Part shown: in pieces, positions 13,191 through 61,352 of the stretch
Layout: every line of letters starts with the position of its first letter
How positions within the stretch are numbered: position 1 is the stretch's first letter
Origin: Octopus vulgaris
Lineage: Eukaryota
Direction: 5' to 3'
Length of the DNA: 64,000 bases
Assembly: GCA_951406725.2 (NCBI GenBank)
Contig: OX597829.1
Coordinates: 30,938,001 to 31,002,000 of the forward strand
Notes under the pieces: model-generated
The model's input: the letters and a program-made list of their open reading frames with translations, nothing else
Told to the model about the DNA's origin: nothing
Databases searched by the model: none
Position numbers and translations under genes: made by a program

Positions 13191-13632
13191 GTCATCATCA
13201 TTGTTCGCCCGTGGTCGAGACAATGGATTTTACCATGCTACGCCAGACTTCATGGTGCATCATGGCATTACAGAGGTCCTGTTGCTGGATGCCTGTATCC
13301 CTGGAGATTACATCATGGTAGGAGAGTGTGCGCCCTCTGGTATTGCGAGTAGATGGCTTCCAGAGGAGAAGAGTAGAAATTACCTCTTTTTCAGCTCTAC
13401 AACAATGTCCAGCAAACTGGACTCTCCTACCTTTCACAAGAGATGACACAGGTGGTAGTTTCCCATATATTTGTACTTTGGTTGGATGACGCTTCCATGA
13501 GAGATTTTGAGCTCTCATAAGGCAGCGAGTGTAGGTTCCATCCAACTGCCTCTCAAGCTTCTTTGATAACGTCCATTTTTCTGAGCCATATAATAGAATT
13601 GGTTCGAATTGGTTCGAAGTTTGAAGTCTCTA
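13191..13632 (-). mobile_element. 5'-truncated RTE-like LINE, same family as 737-1134
   Basis: ORF 13198..13545 is nearly identical to 746..1093 and has the TGA tail. Confidence 0.9.
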
Positions 13633-19817: not shown

Positions 19818-21105
19818 CATGTGTGTGTGAACGTGTGTGTTTATTTCCATGGTAATAAGGAAGTGGCTTATAATGTTTTCTACTTGCTGCAGTGAAACAA
19901 TTTCAACAATGATTATAACATTATTATTATTATTATTATATATTTTGTAATCCATCCAGACTCTTATCTTATTAATTTCTGAGCTATTGATTCACTTCAG
20001 TTTGATTAAGTATGACACATTTGTAAAAATCTCTTTTGACATTTTACTTAGATTGCTTTATTCTTTATACGTATTTTACTTTCATCATTTGTCCTCCGAC
20101 TCAAATGTGTTTAAAATTTAATAGGATACAGTGTTTGATTCAGCAGAGCATCACTGAGTTTTGAATTCAAATCGTGCCAAAGCTAGCTGTTTCTTTCATT
20201 CCTCCTTGGTCGACAAAAAACTGGAGTATTAAATATGTACAGGAAACCGAGTTAATGTTCTTCTAAGACATCCTAAGATAAAATGGAAGAAAAAAAAGAC
20301 CATTGTTCATCTTCTCCCACATGTTGCCATTGAGTGAAGGAGTCTCTCAGCATGTTATCACTTCTTGTAATATCTCTTCATCGTTCATACACCACAGATG
20401 AAAATCATCCAAACATTGTTATTGTGAACATCATGTGCCTAACGTGGCTTTTACAGAGTCATTCTCATTTACTACCAATCACTTGACAATCTGGATTGGG
20501 TGTGCTTTGATACAGCAGAGCATCATTGAGTTTTGAATTCAAATCCTACCTAGGCTAGCTGTTTCTTTCACCAGGAGTATCAACTGAGTACTGGAAACTC
20601 ATTTAATGTTCTTGTAAAACATCCTGAAATACAATGGAAGAAAAAAAGACCAGCATACATACATGCATACATATATACATACATACATACATGCATACAT
20701 ACATACATACATGCATACATACATACATACATGCATACATACATACATACATACATACATACATACATACATACATACATACATACATACATACAGACAC
20801 ATACATACACACACACACATACATACATACATAAAAATACATACATACATACATACATACATACATACATACATACATACATACATACATACATACATAC
20901 ATACATACATACATAAATACATACATACATACATACATACAAATATATATATATATAGTCAATTCAAATAAACAATCAGTTCAAATAAATGAATAATAAA
21001 ATTAACAGACAAGAGGAGGTGTACAAGGAATGCATTAGCTTGATGCTTGGCAAAAAGAGGCTGTTTGACATTTTGGAGCATTGCTCTTCATTGGAAAGGA
21101 AAAAG

Positions 21106-21300
21106 GGTCATGTGTTGCATATTGATAAGGAGAGCTGTGTGAAGAAGTGTCACTCTCTAACAGTTGAAGGAACCTGTGGAAGAAGGAGATCCAGGAAGAC
21201 ATGGGATGATGTGGTGAAGCATGACCTTCAAACATTAATGACGAAAGACCAAGACCTCTGGAGATATGCTGTGATTGAGAAGACCTGGCAAGTAAAATGA
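21106..21300 (+). mobile_element. RTE LINE 3' fragment
   Basis: GHVLHIDKESCVKKC..VEGTCGRRRSRKTWDDVV..DQDLWR. Copies at 27375-27570 and 29070-29328. Confidence 0.85.
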
Positions 21301-21738
21301 GATCACAGCTTAGCCTACACCAGTGTCACATAACAGGTGACATGCCATGCTTGAGGAGACCTATTGAGTCAAGTAAAATCAAAATCAAATTAAATCAAAT
21401 CACAATCAAATGGAAATTGTAGTTGTGGCTGATGCCAGTGCTGCCTGACTGGCATGCTATAAACACCATGCACGCATGGGTCATTGCCAGTACTGCCTGA
21501 CTGGCTCTCATGCTAATGGCATGTAAAAGGCACCCACTGCACTCTGAGAGTGGTTGGCATTAGGAAGGTCATTCAGCTGTAGAAACCTTGCCAGATCAGA
21601 TTGGAGCCTGGTGTAGCCTCCTGGCTTGCCAGTCCCCAGTCAAACCGTCCAACCCAGGCCAGTATAGAAAGCGGACGTTAAACGATGATGATAATGATAA
21701 TGATGATGATGATGATATATACATACATATATATATAA

Positions 21739-22433
21739 ATAATTAATTAATAAGGGTGAGAGAATTAGATACTAATTTAATAGTATATTTATTCCACACC
21801 AAGTGGCCTAGTGCTACGAGAAACCTGGATTATTATAATATTTTATAACATATTATAATATTTTCACAAAATAAATATAAGAGAGTGGTCACTATATTGA
21901 TCACTCTAGCACCAGTTAATCCAAAAGGTTTCAACCACGAAAATACATGTTTCCCATGAAAGCCAGTACGACTGTTAGCTCACACGGACAGGGCAAATAA
22001 AAAATAACAAAAATACAGATTATTTTGGGACAATTGTTTCGCTATTAATGAATTAAATGTAATATTACTTACAATAATCCATTTGTAGCTCGTCAGCCAA
22101 GACTATCTGGATGAAATCCACTCAATCACACGCCAGATTTTACCATAACGATAAATACGCGTGTGGTTCAATTGATTACATCCGACGTTATAATTCAAAT
22201 GCCCCAACCAACAGCGCGCCAAACTCTCACGGAAAACAAATACAGCATTTAGAAATAAATGCAGCATAATTATAATTAATTAATAAGGGTGAGAGAATTA
22301 GATACTAATTTAATAGTATATTTATTCCACACCAAGTGGCCTAGTGCTACGAGAAACCTGGATTATTATAATATTTTATAACATATTATAATATTTTCAC
22401 AAAATAAATATAAGAGAGTGGTCACTATATTGA
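21739..22433 (-). mobile_element. HHR-bearing retrozyme/Penelope-pLTR-like element, 1.3 tandem copies of a 533-bp unit
   Basis: 162-bp direct repeats at 21739-21900 and 22272-22433, identical by eye. Non-coding, with an intact HHR. Absent from the paralogous copies at about 26.9 and 28.6 kb. Confidence 0.85.
22017..22109 (-). ncRNA. Intact type-I hammerhead ribozyme
   Basis: Minus strand: ttgg-CTGACGA-gcta..tagc-GAAAcaattgTC-ccaa. Full consensus core, G-C closing stem II, palindromic stem III ACAATTGT, stem I extends to about 13 bp. Confidence 0.9.
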
Positions 22434-22728
22434 CACACACACACACATATATACACATACACACACACATATATATATACATATATACACATATGCATAT
22501 ATATATATATGTATATGTATATGTATATATATATACATACATACATACATACATACATACACACACACATACATACATACATACATACATACACATACAT
22601 ACATAAATACATACATACATACATACATACAGATACATACATACATACATACATACATACATACACACACACACATACATACATACATACATACACACAC
22701 ACACATACATACATAAAAATACATACAT

Positions 22729-22761
<33 letters not shown>

Positions 22762-23340
22762 TACCTACATAAATACATACATACAGATACATACATACAT
22801 ACATACACACATACATACATACACACACACATACATACATACATACATACATACATACACACACATACATACATACATACATACATACACACACACACAT
22901 ACATACATACATACATACACACACACACATACATACATACATACATACACACACACATACATACATAAATACATACATACATACATACATACATACATAC
23001 ATACATACATACATACATACATACATACATACATACATACATACATACATACATACATACATACAAATATATATATATATAGTCAATTCAAATAAACAAT
23101 CAGTTCAAATAAATGAATAATAAAATTAACAGACAAGAAGACGTGTACAAGGAATGCATTAGCTTGATGCTTGGCAAAAAGAGGGTGTTTGACATTTTGG
23201 AGCACTGCTCTTCATTGGAAAGGAAAAAGGGAAAATTTCAAAGAAGGAAAAAAAATTGCCAACAGCATGTGTGTACATATATATATATATATACATATAC
23301 AGCATGTGTGTACATATATATATATATATATATATGTATA

Positions 23341-23603
23341 TTTATTTTATAGAAGGAGCTTCTACAGGACTAGAACTGTTTCATTCAAATGAAATCATCA
23401 GGAAGCTTGGCGTCAAGAATAGTTTTGGCATTTATACATTTAGGCAGATTTGATGGGGTGGTGGTGGGGGACTTTTTTTGATGATTTCATTTGAATGAAA
23501 CAGTTCTAGTCCTGTAGAAGCTCCTATAAAATAAATTAATTTACTCTGCCATGTATTGAGTACCTTATTTACTGTGGTTAACCCCGACTCAACCCGGGAC
23601 CTA
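23341..23603. mobile_element. HHR-bearing element with inverted end (arms 23341-23400 and 23480-23535) inserted in (TA)n
   Basis: About 58-bp near-perfect inverted repeat, with TA runs on both flanks. Confidence 0.8.
23357..23407 (-). ncRNA. Type-I hammerhead ribozyme motif
   Basis: Minus strand: agcttc-CTGATGA-t ttca tt tgaa t-GAAAcag ttctagtc ctgTA-gaagct. Perfect 6-bp stem I and 4-bp stem III. Stem II is closed by a U-U mismatch. Confidence 0.8.
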
Positions 23604-25430: not shown

Positions 25431-26640
25431 TGTACCATTAGTCATAGACCTAATCCATTGTCTCTTGCTTTTATAACATTACCTGGTATTTATGGTACCT
25501 TTGGCATTGTCATCTCAGTTTCAAACATTTCAAATTAATCTCTTGACTGAAGATATCTTTGTCTTGCAAGGCACTGCTTCTTGCTGCGCTAACCCACAAG
25601 TCATGGTTTCCTACTTCTACCTCTAAACTTGGAGGCCTTGCAAAGTGGGGGACAGTGGATATTATCCTCTTACTTTGATTATGAACACAAATATATAGAG
25701 TATTTGTTGTGTATATTTATACAGACATATACACAAACACACACACACACATTCAGAGATACGGTGTGCTGGCAGAATCGTTAGCATGCTGGGTGAAATG
25801 CTTTGTGGTATTTCATGTCTTTACATTCTGAATACACAGGGACAATTTCTTCTCTCATTAACATTGGCTCTGTCCCAAAATTCCAATCAATCTTATTGCT
25901 AATTCTTTAAGATTTTAAACAGACCTAGAGTGAGCATTTAACAGATCATCAAAGATTTTTCCCTAAATTACATACCTGAACCCTTTTGTATTTGATATAT
26001 CAAATACTTAATTATGATATTTTCTCTTGAGCAACATTTCTTACTCAAATGTTAGCATTGTTGAGTATATCAGTCTGAGTACAGAAACAAGTAAATGCTA
26101 ATGATTTTTGAGTATGTCAGTATGAGGAGTATTGATTCTGCTGTTCTGTTATCATACAGTTCCAACTATGAGTAAACAAACAAACCAAATGTTAATGTTG
26201 CTGAGTATGTCAAAATGAAGAGTATTGGGACCACCACCACCACACGACACTAATTGTGATGAGGCAAACAATCTGTGTATTTGCTCGTGCGGTTGTGCGT
26301 ATGTGTATGTGTGCAAGTGTTTGTGCAAGCGTTTAGAATATTAAGTGATAAAACTGTGAATGACTTGACATCCTTGGAACTTGTTAACAAAGCGTGGTGC
26401 AAATTACAAACAAAATGAAAAGACAAAAAAAAAAAATTAAATAAATAAAATAAAGACTTATTGAAGAGAAAAATAAAATTGTAAATAAAAAGACGAATTC
26501 TTTTGAGGATAGTTTCAGTCATGATGTAGTATCTAAAAGAATCACATCAACAACTAATCCAACTCTTCTTCAAAATCAATAAGTGATATAATCTCTTCAT
26601 TGAAATTGAAAACAAATTTCACTCAACTGAAATATACATC

Positions 26641-26694
<54 letters not shown>

Positions 26695-27943
26695 TGTATG
26701 TATGTATGTATGTATGTATGTATGTATGTATGTATGCATGTATGTATGTATGTATGTATGTATGTATGTATGTATGTATATATATATATATACATATACA
26801 TATACATATATATGCATATGTGTATATGTGTATATATATATGTGTGTGTGTGTGTGTGTATGTATGTGTATATATGTGTGTGTGTGTGTGTATGTATGTG
26901 TATATATGTGTGTGGGTGTGTATATATATATTTATATATATATGTATGTATATATCATCATCATCATCATTATCATTATCATCATCATTTAACGTCCGCT
27001 TTCTATACTGGCCTGGGTTGGACGGTTTGACTGGGGACTGGCAAGCCAGGAGGCTACACCAGGCTCCAATCTGATCTGGCAAGGTTTCTACAGCTGAATG
27101 ACCTTCCTAATGCCAACCACTCTCAGAGTGCAGTGGGTGCTTTTTACATGCCATTAGCATGAGAGCCAGTCAGGCAGTACTGGCAATGACCCATGCATGC
27201 ATGGTGTTTATAGCATGCCAGTCAGGCAGCACTGGCATCAGCCACAACTACAATTTCCATTTGATTGTGATTTGATTTAATTTGATTTTGATTTTACTTG
27301 ACTCAATAGGTCTCCTCAAGCATGGCATGTCACCTGTTATGTGACACTGGTGTAGGCTAAGCTGTGATCTCATTTTACTTGCCAGGCCTTCTCAATCACA
27401 GCATATCTCCAGAGGTCTTGGTCTTTCGTCATTGTCTAATGTTTGAAGGTCATGCTTCACCACATCATTCCATGTCTTCCTGGATCTCCTTCTTCCACAG
27501 GTTCCTTCAACCATTAGAGAGTGACACTTCTCCACACAGCTCTCCTTATCAATATGCAACACATGACCCTTTTTCCTTTCCAATGAAGAGCAATGCTCCA
27601 AAATGTCAAACAGCCTCTTTTTGCCAAGCATCAAGCTAATGCATTCCTTGTACACCTCCTCTTGTCTGTTAATTTTATTATTCATTTATTTGAACTGATT
27701 GTTTATTTGAATTGACTATATATATATATATTATGTATGTATGTATGTATGTATTTATGTATGTATTTATGTATATATTTATGTATGTATGTATGTATGT
27801 ATGTGTGTGTGTATGTATGTATCTGTATGTATGTATTTATGTATGTATGTATGTATGTATGTATGTATGTATTTATGTATGTATGTGTGTGTGTATGTAT
27901 GTATGTATGTATGTATGTATGTATGTATGTATGTATGTATGTA

Positions 27944-27976
<33 letters not shown>

Positions 27977-28085
27977 ATGTATGTATGTGTGTGTGTATGT
28001 ATGTATGTATGTATGTATGTATGTATGTATGTATGTATGTATGTGTGTATGTATGTATGTATGTATGTATGTATTTATGTATGTA

Positions 28086-28118
<33 letters not shown>

Positions 28119-28243
28119 ATGTATGTATATATGTATGTATCTGTATGTATGTATTTATGTATGTATGTATGTGTGTATGTATGTATGTATGTATGTATGT
28201 ATGTATGTATGTATGTATCTGTATGTATGTATTTATGTATGTA

Positions 28244-28276
<33 letters not shown>

Positions 28277-29328
28277 ATGTATGTATGTATGTGTGTATGT
28301 ATGTATGTATGTATGTATGTATGTATGTATGTATGTATGTGTGTATGTATGTATGTATGTATGTATGTATGTATGTGTGTATGTATGTATGTATGTATCT
28401 GTATGTATGTATGTATTTATGTATGTATGTATATATATATAAAATGGCGGTGCCCCAGCATGGCCACAGCTCATTAGCTGAAACTGGAAAAATCAAAATC
28501 AAAAATCATATATATATATATACATATACATATACATATATATATGCATACGTGTATATATGCATATATATATGTGTGTGTGTGTGTATGTATGTGTATA
28601 TATGTGTGTGGGTGTGTATATATATATTTATATATATATGTATGTATATATCATCATCATCATCATTATCATTATCATCATCGTTTAACGTCCGCTTTCT
28701 ATACTGGCCTGGGTTGGACGGTTTGACTGGGGACTGGCAAGCCAGGAGGCTACACCAGGCTCCAATCTGATCTGGCAAGGTTTCTACAGCTGAATGACCT
28801 TCCTAATGCCAACCACTCTCAGAGTGCAGTGGGTGCTTTTTACATGCCATTAGCATGAGAGCCAGTCAGGCAGTACTGGCAATGACCCATGCATGCATGG
28901 TGCTTATTGCATGCCAGTCAGGCAGCACTGGCATCAGCCACAACTACAATTTCCATTTGATTGTGATTTGATTTGATTTGATTTTGATTTTACTTGACTC
29001 AATAGATCTCCTCAAGCATGGCATGTCACCTGTTATGTGACACTGGTGTAGGCTAAGCTGTGATCTCATTTTACTTGCCAGGCCTTCTCAATCACAGCAT
29101 ATCTCCAGAGGTCTTGGTCTTTCGTCATTGTCTAATGTTTGAAGGTCATGCTTCACCACATCATCCTATGTCTTCCTGGATCTCCTTCTTCCACAGGTTC
29201 CTTCAACTGTTAGAGAGTGACACTTCTTCACACAGCTCTCCTTATCAATATGCAACACATGACCATACCAGCGCAGTTGTCTCTCTTGCACAACATGGTT
29301 GATGCTTCATATGTCAAACATTTCTCTC
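26641..29328 (-). repeat. Segmental duplication arm B-A-B, inverted relative to 20655-23231, including a large (TATG)n at 27733-28440
   Basis: 26780-27570 matches 28510-29264, and both are reverse complements of 21106-21740. Confidence 0.9.
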
Positions 29329-29523
29329 AGGCAAAATCTCATCATAGGAGTAGAAAAGATATACCATTGGGTTATTAGGTACTGTGTTTTCAAATCATTT
29401 CAGCAGTGTTTTCAAATCATCTAGGCCGACTGCTGAGATAATTTGAAAGCAGCACCTAATAACCTAATGGTATATCTTTTCTACTCCTCTGATGAGATTT
29501 TGTCTAATACAATGATTTAATTA

Positions 29524-30092
29524 ACGTAAGGGGTATCAGCCATCTGAATGTGGCTAGGCACTGGGAGGGGGTGGTGTTACTGATGCTTTTAACCCCAGGC
29601 GATCAACGTCACCAGAAGGACTTTAGACACTATCTCAGTGTCCTTGCCCCAGTGCCTAGCCACATTCAGATGGCTGATACCCCTTACGTTGTCGAGCAGT
29701 TACTGTTTATATCTCGTTCAGAGATTTATTATTGTTTTCAGACAGTTTTTCTACATCAGTGACAGTGGTTACTGTGAAAAACATTATATATTGTTTGTAG
29801 AGGGAATCCTTCATCGAAGAGCGGTACTTACCATACGTTGACAAGAGGCAATGACCTCGAAACTAGTCCGTATGTAGTACCCGGATCTTTGAGGGAGGAT
29901 GACCTCCCTTTACAAACAAACAAGGACACTGAGTTAGTGTCTAAAGTCCTTCTGGTGACGTTGATTGCCTGGGGCTAAAAGCAAAAGCATCAGTAACACC
30001 CCCCCCCCCCCCAGTGCCTAGCCACATTCAGATGGCTGATACCCCTTACGTTGTCGAGCAGTTACTGTTTATATCTCGTTCAGAGATTTATT
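29524..30092 (+). mobile_element. Nested retrozyme/Penelope-like element: inverted segment plus 1.24 copies of a 362-bp unit, 13-bp TSD
   Basis: 29524-29646 is the reverse complement of 29921-30051. 29647-29731 matches 30009-30093. TSD AATGATTTAATTA at 29511-29523 and 30093-30105. Confidence 0.85.
29832..29874 (+). ncRNA. Minimal hammerhead motif with two core substitutions, on a long rod (29791-29919)
   Basis: catacg-TTGACAA-gagg caatga cctc-GAAActagTC-cgtatg. All three stems are perfect. The core differs from CTGACGA at two positions. Confidence 0.75.
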
Positions 30093-30232
30093 AATGATTT
30101 AATTATTGTAATTTAATCTTTAGGCTAAATTGAAACAGCTGTAAGGGAATATGTCAGATTTTTGCAGTTAATAAATTATATTAATGCTACATCTCCATTT
30201 TCTAAATTTTCTTATATGTGTGTGTGTGTGTA

Positions 30233-31130
30233 CGTGTGGTGTGATCAATAAGTATCTGGACTGTTTCCGTAGTAATGAAGCTAAAATATGTAGAGTGAAG
30301 CTACTTGGCACAGATTGACCTTGAACTCTGCTGTGCATGTGCACTAAGTTTTAACATACTAACTGACTTCGTTGCTTACAGCAGTACTTGGAAGGAAGGT
30401 GTGTATTGTATGATTGTCGCATTGACCATGACAGAGAAAGTTGAGCAGAGAATCTGCATCTAATTTTGCCAAAAGCTAGACAATATCTGCTCAGAGGCCT
30501 ACAGAAAGTTTTCAAAAAGATTTCATCATTCTTGACACAATCAAGGAGATCTTGTGCAACTGAAACCCGAGTGTCTTTTTGGTCAGCTGAAAGCAGTCTT
30601 GGCACAAACTTGGCAGATATGCGTCTCATACCCAAGTCTTCAAGAGATAATGGACTGAACTGAACTGTAACTAATCTGCACATCCTCTGATACCTCACAG
30701 ATGGTGATTCAACAATTTCCCCTCAGAGCTGCACACGTATCTGTGATGTTTTTCTCATTTCTGTTGGTTGTGGATCTCACAGAACGTTCATCAATATCAA
30801 CATTTTTTTTGGTCATCTTGGAAACATCTAAACTACTCATACACTTGTGTGTGGCTCATACACTCCTCTCCATACACTTTCTGCAACATTGCATAGGCTT
30901 CTGAGCAGGTATCGCCATGACAACTTTCTCTGTCAAGGTCAATGCGATGATCACACACTACACACTTTCCTTCCAAGCACTGCTGTAAACAACGGAATTG
31001 AGCTAGAATGTTAAAACTTAGTGTGCATGCACAGCAGAGTTCAAGGGTAATCTGTGCCAAGTGGCTTCACTCGGCATGATTTAGCTTCGTTACTATGGCA
31101 ACAGTCCAAATACTTATTGATCAAACCTCG
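30233..31130. mobile_element. Non-autonomous mariner derivative made of two inverted 5' ends
   Basis: About 210-bp inverted arms and TA flanks. The minus strand encodes LGMRRISAKFVPRLLSADQK. Second copy at 60450-61352. Confidence 0.9.
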
Positions 31131-50670: not shown

Positions 50671-52050
50671 GTGATTTTTTTAATTTCCCACAAGAGGACA
50701 ACATAGATAAAGGACAATACAATCTGATTGGGGTCAGATGGCCAAATGGATATTACATTAAGATGAAATTAAAAATTCACAAAATAAAATATAAATAAAT
50801 TGAATGATAGGACAGACCAGAAGACATTATGGATAGAGTGGGGATGCAGGTTCAATTCAGACCCCACGAGCCCCACCTTGCCACTGATACCTGAGATATG
50901 TCCTGCATCGCATTCATGAAGTTACATCCACGTGCCATATCCGTGCTACATTCTTTCATCGATTTTCAAGCATTTTCACAGTCTGGTATTTTCTCTCTAG
51001 CCCTATCTTCCTTTCAAGGTGCAAGGTGAAATAATTCACCAACTCAGGGCCAGAGATGAAAATGCTTGACTTTAAATTCTTTCAGCCTCATCTTCCAAAT
51101 CACCTCTCTCGCAATTGCTACTACAGTGAGAAAACAATTCTTATCTTCTTTCGAAAGGAAATTAGGTGGGTCAATTTTTACTATAGACTCAGTTGATAGC
51201 TGTACTCTTCCAGTACTTGACAACAGTTGTTCAGCATAAGCCCACATGTCTGACACCTCCGAACACTGAACAGTAGCATGCAGGACAGTTTCCCTATCCC
51301 GCTCACATCTTGGACAGGTCAAAGGACCGCGGCCTCCATGCCTTGTGAGCTTGTCCCAAACAAGTAAGGCTTCTCGGTAACATTGCCATGCCAGAGACTT
51401 CTGAAAGTTGTCCAGGGTCTTCGGTCCGAAAGTATGTCGGAACAGACTGGCCAGCTGATTATTGTCGAGACCTAGGATTTCCTCTGAGGTATCGTCACAT
51501 TCCGTCTCTACAAGCTCTCTATAAAAGAATGTGGTGGAACCTCCACTGCAGGCATTGCCTGAGCAACAGAATAGCAGGAGAGCCTTGCGACACTCCATAA
51601 ACCACGTACCCAACTTCGATCTTCGATAGAACCAGGTTTTCTGTCCACCAAAACTAGTGAACTTGGGAAACATCCATTTTGTCAGCGGAGACCACACACA
51701 TTCACCATCCTGGTAGAGCCACAGATGCCTCAACCTCAACGCATGTCTGCGCATCAATAACCAAGGCATCCCTAGCCCATCCTTTAACAGTTATTGGCAG
51801 CAAACAAAGCGTCTCACAAGCGGTTTCGAGCCCTTCCACAAGAAGTGGAAGAGCTGTCTTTCCAGCTTGATCAACCACAAATCAGGGCAAGGAACGATGG
51901 TTAGGCGGTATGTGATGACTGATGCGATGAACACATTGGCTACCTCTTCCCTTCCTTTCAGGGATAGCCACTGCCAAGACCAGGTCTTGACTATGTGGGT
52001 CACCCTGCTCGATACCTCGGCCCAATAGTTATGGAGCCATTGCAGATTTC
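50671..52050 (-). mobile_element. L1/Tx1-clade LINE 3' fragment with zf-RVT region
   Basis: ORF 51791..52075 (WSWQWLSLKGR..FHFLWKG) and ORF 51044..51769 (CPRCERDRETVLHATVQC). Confidence 0.9.
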
Positions 52051-56728: not shown

Positions 56729-58555
56729 TACAATAAGTTGACAAAAATTAACTGCACTTTTGCAAAAACTTTCTTTATGAAGGCTGTGTATGCTAAAAGG
56801 TGTCACTCTTGTAGTTACATAACTGAGATTTAATCATGATCACTCCACTTTTCTATCTTGTGTTATTGGAGATATACTTACAAAAGACTGGAAATGAATG
56901 ATACTGCTTGTATGACAGTGACACTAATTGTACATCATCATGCAATTAGAAGTTAAAGGTAGAGTACCCCTCCACACACACACACACATCAAAGTTATAC
57001 TGGGACGGGATTTTCTATGTCTGGATACTCTACTTATCACCAGCCCCTATTTGTTTACAAGTCAGGTAATCTGCTAGTATATCAAACAATGACTCTTGTA
57101 GTTACATAACTGAGATTTGATCATGATCACTCCACTTTTCTATCTTGTGTTACAGAGTAAACTTAGCTGCTCCACTGGCAGTGTGCACCAAGGAAGAACA
57201 GAGATCAGTGATCTGTTGTCTCTGGTCTGAAGGTGTGTCAGAGACTGAAATTCATCACAGACTTTCAGTACAATATGAAAACAGAGCTTTAGTGAGTAAA
57301 AGTATATATGAGTGGATCGAGAAGTTTAAAAATGGGCAGACAAGTGTGAAGTATGAAGAAGGAGCAGGATGCTCCAAATTTCTACCACTGATGTGAAGAT
57401 TCTTATTTATTTACTGCCCACAAGGAGCTACACACAGAGGGGACAAACAAGGACAGACAAACGGATTAAGTTGATGATATCAACCCCAGTGCATAACTGA
57501 TACTTATTTAATCAACCCCGAAAGGATGAAAGGCAAAGTTGACCTCGGTGGAATTTGAACTCAGAATGTAGCGGCAGACGAAATACCACTAAGCATTTCG
57601 TCCGGCGTGCTAACATTTCTTTTCTGCCAGCTTGCCGCCTTCACTGATGTGAAGATTCAACAAGCTCCATTGACAGTTCTGGCAAGCCAATGAGTGACGA
57701 TCAAGGAGGTGGTATGTTCTTTGCAAATTAGTTGTGGTTTTGCATATGAAATCATCCAAGAAAAGCTTTGCTCCCATAAAGTCCATGTGAGATGGGTACC
57801 AAGAGACCCTACTGAAGCATATAAGTGCAGTTGTGTGGAGATCTGTCAATACTGACTTGACCACTACAGTGGCAAACGTGAAGCTTTTTTGGAGAGAATA
57901 GTCACAGTAGAAGAGATATAGGTCTATCACTTTTAGCCAGAATCTGAAAGGAAGTGTGAAGTGGAAACACCTGGAGTCATCAGCGAAAAAGAAATTCAAG
58001 ACTTGACTTAATGCAGAAAAAGTGACACTAACCATTTTTACAGGTGTATAAGGGCCTGTGGTGGAACGTTACCTGGAAAAGGGGTCTACAGTCACAGTGT
58101 AGTTTGTAGTGAAATACTCTCCAACAAACTGGAACCAGTAATTTACACCAAACACTGAGGTTTATTGTCAAAGCAAGTGTTAATATTGCACAACGATGCA
58201 CATCCACATATGGCTGCCCACACCATTGAAACTATTGAAATATTGGGTTTTGAGTTGCTGGAATACTCTGCATTCAGTTCAGATCTCCCCACCTCTGACT
58301 ATCATCTCTTTGGGATGTTCAAACATCATTTACAAGGTTGATTTGTTATGGAAGAAGATATGCAAGAAGTAGTGCATAAATGACTGCATGACCAACTGAA
58401 AACCTTCAATGGAATTAGCAAGTTTATGGACCATTGAAAGAAGTGCATAAAAAAGCAAGGAGACTATGCCATTGCCATAAAGTGATGCAATTATTCAACC
58501 CATGCTTTTGCTTTAATAAATTACAGAAACAAGAGTGCGCATACTTTTTAGCCTG
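56729..58555 (+). mobile_element. Near full-length decayed mariner with two insertions
   Basis: CTKEEQRSVI..IYEWIEKFKNGQTSV, WVPR, LHNDAHPH and YSAFSSDLPTSDYHLFG remnants. Confidence 0.88.
57403..57641 (-). mobile_element. SINE family B inserted in the mariner, 17-bp TSD
   Basis: CACTGATGTGAAGATTC at 57386-57402 and 57642-57658. Confidence 0.93.
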
Positions 58556-60449: not shown

Positions 60450-61352
60450 CGTGGTCTGATAAATAATTATCCAGACTGTTGCCATAGTAATGAAACTAAA
60501 GCATGCAGAGTGAAGCCACTTGGCAAAGATTGACCATGAACTCTGCTGTGCATGCACACTAATTTTGACATTTAAGCTTACTTCTGCTGTTTACAGCAGT
60601 ACTTGGAAAGAAGGTGTGTAGCATGTGATCAATGCTTTGACAATGACAGAGCAAATTTTGCCAAAAGCTTGGTGATACTTGCCCAGAGGCCTATGCAGAG
60701 TTTTCAAAGAGTTTTTATCATTCTCAACACAATCAAGGAGATCTTGTACAACTGAAACCCAAGTGTCCATTTGATCAGCTGAAAGTAGTTTTGGCACAAA
60801 CTTGGCAGATACGCATCTCACACACAAATCTTCAGTGATAATGGACTGAACTGTAACTAATCTGATAACTTATGGATGGTGATTCAATGATTTCCCCTCA
60901 CAGCTGCATGCAGATCTGCAATTTTTTTCTCATTTCTCTTGGTTGAGGGTCTCTCAGAATGTTTGTCAATATCGACATTTTTTTGTCTAGCTTGACAATG
61001 TCTGAACCACTCATACATTTGTGTGCAGCTCATACATTCCTCTCCATACCCTTTCTACAACTCTGCATCAGACTCTGTCATGGTCAATGCGACAGTCACA
61101 TGCTACATACCTTTCTTCCAAGCACTGCTGTAAACAATGGAAGTGAGCTGGAACTTTAAAACATAGTGTGCATGCACAACAGAATTTAAGGTCAATGTTT
61201 GCCAAGAGGCTTCACGCTGCATGCTTTAACTTTGCTTCTATGGGTTTTGAGTTGCTGGAATACTCTGCATTCAGTTCAGATCTCCCCACCTCTGACTATA
61301 ATCTCTTTGGGATGTTCAAACATCAGTCTAAATACTTATTGATCATACCTTA
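60450..61352. mobile_element. Second copy of the two-5'-end mariner derivative
   Basis: Colinear with 30233-31130. Carries an 85-bp insertion in the right arm. Confidence 0.9.

Follow-up and report, generated by a model that had tools for sequence, protein, structure and literature searches.

What kind of element is a hammerhead-bearing unit that occurs in little more than one copy, with a piece of itself inverted alongside, and which machinery placed it there? The question arises at a locus in Octopus vulgaris (contig OX597829.1 of assembly GCA_951406725.2), for which we analysed a stretch of 64,000 nucleotides, here called the window (positions 30,938,001 to 31,002,000 of the contig). The original prediction had described the segment 29524..30092 as a 123-bp inverted segment followed by 1.24 units of a 362-bp monomer, with a rod-like fold topped by a minimal hammerhead, and had read it as the genomic copy of a small circular RNA. 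We find a 569-bp non-coding insertion in which an inverted arm is joined to 1.23 copies of a 362-nt unit (Table 1). It is probably a non-autonomous retrozyme, present as a solo copy, that was inserted in trans by the reverse transcriptase/endonuclease of a Penelope-like element (PLE), a reading whose support is drawn from one copy at this locus.

Table 1. Features of the focal insertion and of related loci, in window coordinates.
Feature	Position	Strand	Basis or remarks
Left target-site duplication (TSD)	29511..29523	+	13/13 identical to 30093-30105; 11-13 bp given 1-nt ambiguity per junction
Inverted arm	29524..29646	-	Unit positions ~275-362 plus 1-43; blastn and pairwise alignment
362-nt non-coding unit	29647..30008	+	44% GC; repeat spacing 362
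Long hairpin, ~40-bp extension of hammerhead stem I	29791..29919	+	Fold; 3 G-U wobbles on the plus strand
Type I hammerhead	29823..29881	+	Descriptor match and fold
Partial second unit, positions 1-84	30009..30092	+	84/84 identical to 29647-29730
41-nt tail	30052..30092	+	At the right end, missing from the inverted arm
Right TSD	30093..30105	+	Identical partner of 29511-29523
Target: older hammerhead-like motif split by the insertion	29489..30147	+	Core CTGATGA at 29489-95; GAAA-CAGCTG-TA at 30132-43
Element B, partial-tandem hammerhead insertion	21739..22433	-	533-nt unit, 1.30 units; core CTGACGA at 22096-22090

The inverted segment of 123 bp and the 362-bp monomer were both borne out, the latter as the repeat spacing of the single copy. 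The partial tandem also stands, with a perfectly identical repeat, and only its extent changes slightly from the 1.24 units first given. The TSD is a feature that the original prediction did not contain; a 13-bp match is expected by chance with a probability of about 1e-7 at the local composition. In an alignment with the reverse complement of 29921-30051 the inverted arm reaches 90% identity, the differences being 5 substitutions and 2 indels, all of them in the part that corresponds to unit positions 275-362. Its outward end is at unit position 43, and 2 nt lie between its inner end and the long hairpin's base. Each outward end of the insertion corresponds to a 3' end of the unit, at position 84 on the right-hand side and at position 43 on the inverted left, and the offset between them is 41 nt (40-42 nt given an ambiguity of 1 nt at the junctions). 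The target DNA is 80% AT, and its first 8 bases match the continuation of the RNA at 6 positions. The presence of ATT at both nicks was not counted as evidence (the 60-nt empty site holds 12 ATT/AAT sites).

The unit contains no ORF, the longest stop-free stretch being 66 codons in a six-frame translation. A blastn search gave no second copy in the 64-kb window, and relatives were found neither in phages or plasmids (blastn) nor in prokaryotic genomes (two exact patterns). A scan for bacterial promoters and terminators, which is not relevant here, yielded hits at chance level.

The arrangement of a partial tandem next to an inverted, 5'-truncated copy is of the type described for PLEs, whose insertions carry an inverted truncated copy and, at one end only, a tail of 30-40 bp that has been called unique to these elements (PMC8557442). 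Given a tail held to be specific to PLEs, its combination with an inversion and a TSD on a non-coding hammerhead element of more than unit length provides insertion-site evidence for a PLE helper, and the earlier interpretation of the inverted 5' segment and the partial tandem as a Penelope-type insertion is strengthened by the TSD and the tail offset. In the element Adineta Pen2a, a 31-bp tail, a 9-bp TSD and a head-to-head inverted pLTR have been described, with TSDs of 8-10 bp in Adineta (PMC3846280). For the Anolis element PAc, in vitro work placed the tail as the stretch between two internal start sites of reverse transcription (RT), and showed that both target strands are cut and extended, that AT-rich DNA is preferred and that initiation takes place without homology to the target (PMC11167929). 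More broadly, the octopus insertion shares with the EN+ PLEs (Penelope/Poseidon and Neptune, including Adineta Pen2a and Anolis PAc) the head-to-head inverted 5' arm, the partial tandem, the tail at one end, a TSD of about 10 bp, the AT-rich target and a hammerhead upstream of the RT start region. Unlike these elements it has no RT/GIY-YIG ORF and its hammerhead is of the canonical rather than the minimal type, and its RT start sites follow the cut site by 183 and 224 nt, as compared to about 85-92 nt in PAc. Two further observations speak against a PLE: the tail, a single instance, is at the edge of the published range or just above it, and the 6/8 match to the target is unlike PAc.

A different machinery was also considered, in which an L1- or RTE-type LINE would have inserted a SINE-like structured RNA by twin priming and the inversion would carry a 43-nt duplication. 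Priming by LINEs is compatible with a TSD of 11-13 bp, a 5' inversion and a match between target and RNA at the 3' end, all of which are seen here, and fragments of RTE-like and zf-RVT LINEs are present in the window. On the other hand, the insertion ends in neither poly(A) nor a simple-repeat tail, its more-than-unit length and the tail-sized offset of its ends are PLE traits, and type I hammerheads associate with PLEs. We consider insertion by a LINE very improbable, the least probable of the explanations examined. A tRNA-derived SINE head was also considered and rejected, as no tRNA was found in the insertion.

We also examined the hammerhead itself. The fold and the descriptor agree on a type I motif with a stem I of 6 bp (29832-37/29869-74) and loop 1 (UAC/U), the core UUGACAA at 29838-44, in which U3 pairs with A8, a stem II of 4 bp (29845-48/29855-58; G10.1-C11.1) with the 6-nt loop CAAUGA, and GAAA at 29859-62. 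Helix III is formed by the palindrome ACUAGU, that is, a single A-U pair with the palindromic tetraloop CUAG, and cleavage is predicted after C29868 at a GUC cut site. Pair probabilities in the monomer circle were 0.79-1.0 for stems I and II and 0.0 for helix III. The TTGACAA hammerhead, which had been predicted within the capped hairpin and is indeed found there, was the sole match of its descriptor on either strand of the 64 kb, and the minus strand of the unit contains no hammerhead by the same approach. In 150 shuffled windows there were 0 hits with the strict descriptor and 4 with a loose form, both having been written after the motif had been seen. The Rfam hammerhead models yielded no match at the gathering threshold for the window or at E<=10 for three stretches, a test of low power here since it also missed element B with its canonical core. 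No other Rfam family was credible; hits to microRNAs fell on a DNA palindrome and on microsatellites.

The helix sizes are those given for canonical metazoan type I hammerheads, with 6 bp in helix I, 4 bp in helix II and a short palindromic helix III (PMC4209133). The minimal hammerheads of PLEs, as characterized in the same paper, have an extra base between positions 9 and 10.1, a short helix I and a long helix II; none of these is found here, and the term minimal is therefore not appropriate for the octopus motif. The candidate tertiary-contact nucleotides of loop 1 (UAC/U) and loop 2 (C...A) may resemble those of the Schistosoma motif, to the extent that a machine-read Fig. S1 in the supplement of PMC4209133 allows parsing (for background on hammerhead tertiary contacts, see PMC6155905).

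According to the original prediction, the consensus core of the family should be CTGACGA and the ribozyme of this copy would have been killed by two mutations, and a consensus TTGACAA would refute the interpretation. This expectation is likely wrong. The two changes produce a U3:A8 pair in place of the 3-8 pair normally made by C3 and G8, which is why the core need not be seen as decayed. The U3:A8 covariation has been found in nature and shown to be active (PMC3088659), and it marks about 1,300 Schistosoma motifs (PMC4209133). Two random hits among the 13 core positions would give a compensated 3-8 pair in only about 0.6-1% of cases. Moreover, 0 of 97 duplicated sites have diverged, from which the probability that both core changes occurred after insertion is at most 0.13%, and 10 CpGs survive in the unit, 3 of them in the ribozyme, with an observed/expected ratio of 0.57 as compared to 0.30 window-wide. 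In favour of inactivation it can be noted that both changes are transitions, one of them CpG-type, that arm and body differ by one CpG-type change (at 29966) and that the core of element B is CTGACGA. Taken together, inactivation by two mutations appears improbable, and the sequence suggests that UUGACAA is likely a compensated, functional variant of the family. Decay of the core in the source lineage may still have occurred, one copy being the basis. Compensated 3-8 pairs are likewise present in other U3-A8 variants (Perreault 2011, PMC3088659) and in the minimal hammerheads of Schistosoma Cercyon PLEs (PMC4209133), but the Schistosoma motifs are minimal and have the extra base after A9, whereas the octopus motif keeps canonical helices and loops.

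With a relaxed descriptor, four loci with hammerhead-like motifs were identified, of which three are in the window as it stands and one emerges once the insertion is removed, as compared to 2 hits in 200 shuffled windows. One of these, found blind, belongs to element B, which is located about 7 kb from the focal insertion and is similar to it in design but unrelated in sequence. Its repeat is identical at 162/162 positions, and its hammerhead has a 49-nt AT-rich stem-loop II and an 8-nt palindromic helix III. Element B lies in a TG/TA microsatellite without a clear TSD, and the paralogous segments at about 26870-27568 and 28560-29264 lack it. There was no convincing homology among elements A (the focal insertion), B and C. 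Two of the three local direct repeats carry a hammerhead; the other, at 56805-57152, is a 61-nt direct repeat of 98% identity and 287-nt spacing with no hammerhead.

The fourth locus is the target itself, where the insertion splits an older hammerhead-like motif whose 54-nt AT-rich stem-loop II holds the TSD. Any hit was obtained in 1 of 20,000 local shuffles, with a relaxed descriptor that was written after the motif had been seen. The segments 29322-29512 and 30106-30147 form a 190-bp head-to-head palindrome, the right arm of which runs into the split motif, and which may itself be an older element similar in kind to the focal insertion. Another of the four loci, at 24236-24208 on the minus strand, has a motif that resembles the minimal hammerheads of PLEs, with an extra base after A9, a 5-bp helix II and a 3-bp helix I; no ORF or repeat was recognised around it.

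The presence of two unrelated elements, both of 1.2-1.3 units with perfect repeats, bears on another explanation, namely that the 362 nt are the 5'-truncated 3' end of an autonomous PLE (pLTR plus tail) and that the 84-nt copy results from a template jump to the same start. A rare jump accounts less well for two such cases, and the hammerhead lacks the traits of PLE minimal hammerheads (extra base after A9, long helix II). The TSD, the inversion and the tail are equally expected of a truncated autonomous PLE, and an ATG at unit position 24 opens a frame of 20 codons that extends to the right end, which may be compared with the 22 codons held by the pLTR and tail of Adineta Pen2a (PMC3846280). 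A branch-point-like TAAC, a C tract and an AG precede this ATG, and introns are reported from the 5' UTRs of PLEs (PMC8557442). However, an open ATG frame of this kind was present in 131 of 795 random 84-nt windows (16%), there is none in element B, and the peptide had no protein match, in a search that is weak for 30-41 residues. A relic ORF start in the unit was rejected on this basis (no protein hit, chance 16%), and the protein searches gave no peptide link to a parent element. The insert contains no ORF for a telomerase-like RT with GIY-YIG, and no PLE ORF was seen among the 10 ORFs scanned of the 65 listed for the window, the remainder being mostly microsatellite. We regard the truncated autonomous element as unlikely.

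To describe the RNA, we folded the hairpin, the monomer circle and dimers. The long imperfect hairpin is confirmed: its 129 nt have a folding energy of -57.5 kcal/mol (z -8.1), and 0 of 200 shuffled sequences were as stable. The rod, on the other hand, is not upheld by circular folding. The minimum free energy structure (MFE) of the monomer contains 9 hairpin loops and is 61% paired, as compared to 59.5% in shuffled sequences, which rules out a rod for the whole monomer. The circular fold had a z score of -4.35 for the plus strand (0/150 shuffles) and of -1.78 for the minus strand (7/150), while the pieces outside the long arm, with z scores of -1.5 and -0.3, were no more stable than shuffled sequences. 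The modelled circle is a multibranched molecule in which one long arm holds the excess of stability.

A double hammerhead made from two hairpin strands had a folding energy of -116.6 kcal/mol, as compared to -113.6 kcal/mol for two separate hairpins. In the head-to-tail dimer of whole units it was 9 kcal/mol above the MFE, which keeps the hairpins separate, so that cleavage in cis would likely require a chaperone or other protein, or a co-transcriptional path. Help from a protein has been demonstrated for the ribozyme of Anolis PAc (PMC11167929), and the axolotl HHR_Amex1 is reported to cleave well when dimeric but poorly by itself (PMC7229834). The 3' arm (29889-29912) can form an alternative 8-bp hairpin whose sequence nearly repeats stem-loop II; such a structure could act as a folding switch by which the arm is released for dimerisation.

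The contrast between repeat and arm is informative about the template. There were 0 differences among 84 sites in the direct repeat and 5 substitutions among 80 sites in the inverted arm (Fisher p 0.026; p 0.08 when the C tract is left out); three substitutions are structure-neutral, with a chance of 0.2 that is not significant. A perfect repeat beside a diverged arm fits one circle that was read 1.23 times together with a second RNA variant, and a circular template for the insertion is thus plausible. With the same family and the same helper, the template could instead have been a linear read-through multimer that was never cleaved or circularised. The template runs uncut through the hammerhead site, the double hammerhead in cis is disfavoured by 9 kcal/mol, and PAc uses unprocessed RNA as its main substrate, ribozyme cleavage being dispensable for its insertion (PMC11167929). 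Yet where tandem units diverge by 6-8% in one part, differences would be expected in the 84-nt repeat as well, which is identical (p 0.026-0.08), and we hold the linear multimer to be a possible but doubtful alternative.

With a circular template, the insertion may be reconstructed as follows. By analogy with known retrozymes, a tandem source locus elsewhere in the genome would be transcribed, paired hammerheads would cut the transcript by means of the palindromic ACUAGU helix III, probably assisted by protein, and the released monomers would be ligated into 362-nt circles. A PLE protein would then nick the two strands of an AT-rich target with a stagger of about 13 bp, as the TSD indicates. 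The offset of the ends, interpreted by analogy with Anolis PAc, points to reverse transcription that would start inside the RNA at two sites, unit positions 84 and 43. From the first of these, the cDNA would run 446 nt, past its own start, and thereby create the identical 84-nt repeat. The other cDNA, begun at position 43, would extend for 123 nt along an RNA variant that differs slightly and would halt at the hairpin base, as expected of a stalled RT. The two cDNAs would finally be joined head to head. Since there is one hammerhead at the locus, the copy cannot itself release a monomer, would not give rise to circles and is likely a dead end.

The original prediction had placed the unit in the size class of non-LTR retrozymes, and the fit extends beyond size. 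These elements are described as short, with a GC content below 50%, no ORF and a TSD of more than 4 bp (PMC7229834); the octopus unit is 362 nt (range 150-450 nt), is non-coding, has 44% GC and carries a type I hammerhead and a TSD of 13 bp. Compared with the metazoan examples in Cervera and de la Pena (2020, PMC7229834), namely those of mussel (350-390 nt), axolotl (Rtz_331/HHR_Amex1), newt (satellite 2) and Schistosoma (SM-alpha), it has in common the unit size, low GC, lack of an ORF, 6-bp and 4-bp type I helices, the TSD of more than 4 bp and a self-paired branched circle (a predicted fold in our case), and its one-pair helix III with a palindromic tetraloop is the same as in HHR_Amex1. 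It differs from them in the U3:A8 core, the stem I arm of about 40 bp and the solo 1.23-unit copy with an inverted arm and a 41-nt tail, features absent from the main text of that paper. Active retrozymes have been defined by at least 2 consecutive hammerhead units (Li et al. 2026, bioRxiv 10.64898/2026.07.22.740005), as compared to the one hammerhead at our locus; in the same preprint solo copies are counted as monomers of a family, and 8 of 9 Xenopus retrozyme dimers showed no cleavage in vitro while 1 of 9 was cleaved.

Short non-autonomous units that are mobilised by PLEs, with pLTRs and head-to-tail insertions, are likewise known among the Chlamys PLEs, such as MRC1, which differ in being green-algal and in having a partner clade without canonical hammerheads (PMC8557442). 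Viroid-like and HDV-like rod circles share the size and the hammerhead, but the octopus unit, with its 9 hairpin loops, is not a rod, and its ribozyme is on one strand and not blocked by a complementary strand. We conclude from a single solo copy that the insertion likely behaves as a PLE-mobilised non-LTR retrozyme would. Elements of this kind are already known.

Shared ribozymes, co-occurrence and the similarity or phylogeny of pLTRs have been put forward as arguments that PLEs mobilise animal retrozymes (PMC7229834; bioRxiv 10.64898/2026.07.22.740005; PMC7761336), the proposed route being via circular RNA (PMC7229834; bioRxiv 10.64898/2026.07.22.740005). In the main texts of the latter two, the word tail has 0 hits, octopus is unmentioned and inverted occurs in one reference title only. 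Our literature search recovered neither a report of an octopod retrozyme nor a junction with tail and inversion on a retrozyme, though supplements, subscription papers and Repbase may hold cases. Penelope families are present in cephalopods (PMC8967140), and 235 Hammerhead_1 hits are listed for the giant squid (PMC6962438). As the Penelope helper had been proposed on indirect evidence, the octopus insertion is a useful mechanistic footprint and a test case. The contrast between an identical repeat and a variant arm could serve, across a whole genome, as a simple test for copying from circles and from two templates, and the locus flags cephalopod hammerhead families that are missed by Rfam and by descriptors that demand C3-G8.

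We tentatively propose, as a speculative extension, that octopod genomes contain several families of hammerhead circles, one of them with U3:A8, that every insertion is a direct record of the Penelope mechanism, in which a dimeric PLE protein primes both target strands on two different RNA circles at sites 41 nt apart and rolls past one full turn on one of the circles, and that the elements target the AT-rich ribozyme loops of each other. If true, genome-wide counts of junctions would prove circular templates and a Penelope helper for animal retrozymes.

Several other features of the window were recorded. Splice-like signals occur at 29870-30014 and 30032 (a donor-like hexamer 1 nt past the cut site, TAAC, a C14 tract, AG and the ATG frame); they could be remnants of an intron in a PLE 5' UTR or could be due to chance. 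Around microsatellite blocks at 20654-23231 and 26638-29264 there are local segmental duplications, both inverted and direct, with lengths of about 0.6-1.1 kb and 88-98% identity, and a short insert within a TA microsatellite (23354-23525) contains a perfect 47-bp inverted repeat. A Mariner/Tc1-like non-autonomous element with terminal inverted repeats of about 200 bp is present in two copies that are 76% identical (30238-31127 and 60451-61243). LINE fragments at 746-1171, 13198-13629 and 51044-51790 (minus strand) comprise two 94%-identical 3' ends, which we take to be RTE-like, and one zf-RVT fragment, for which proteins of Octopus sinensis and Argonauta were the two named matches of five.
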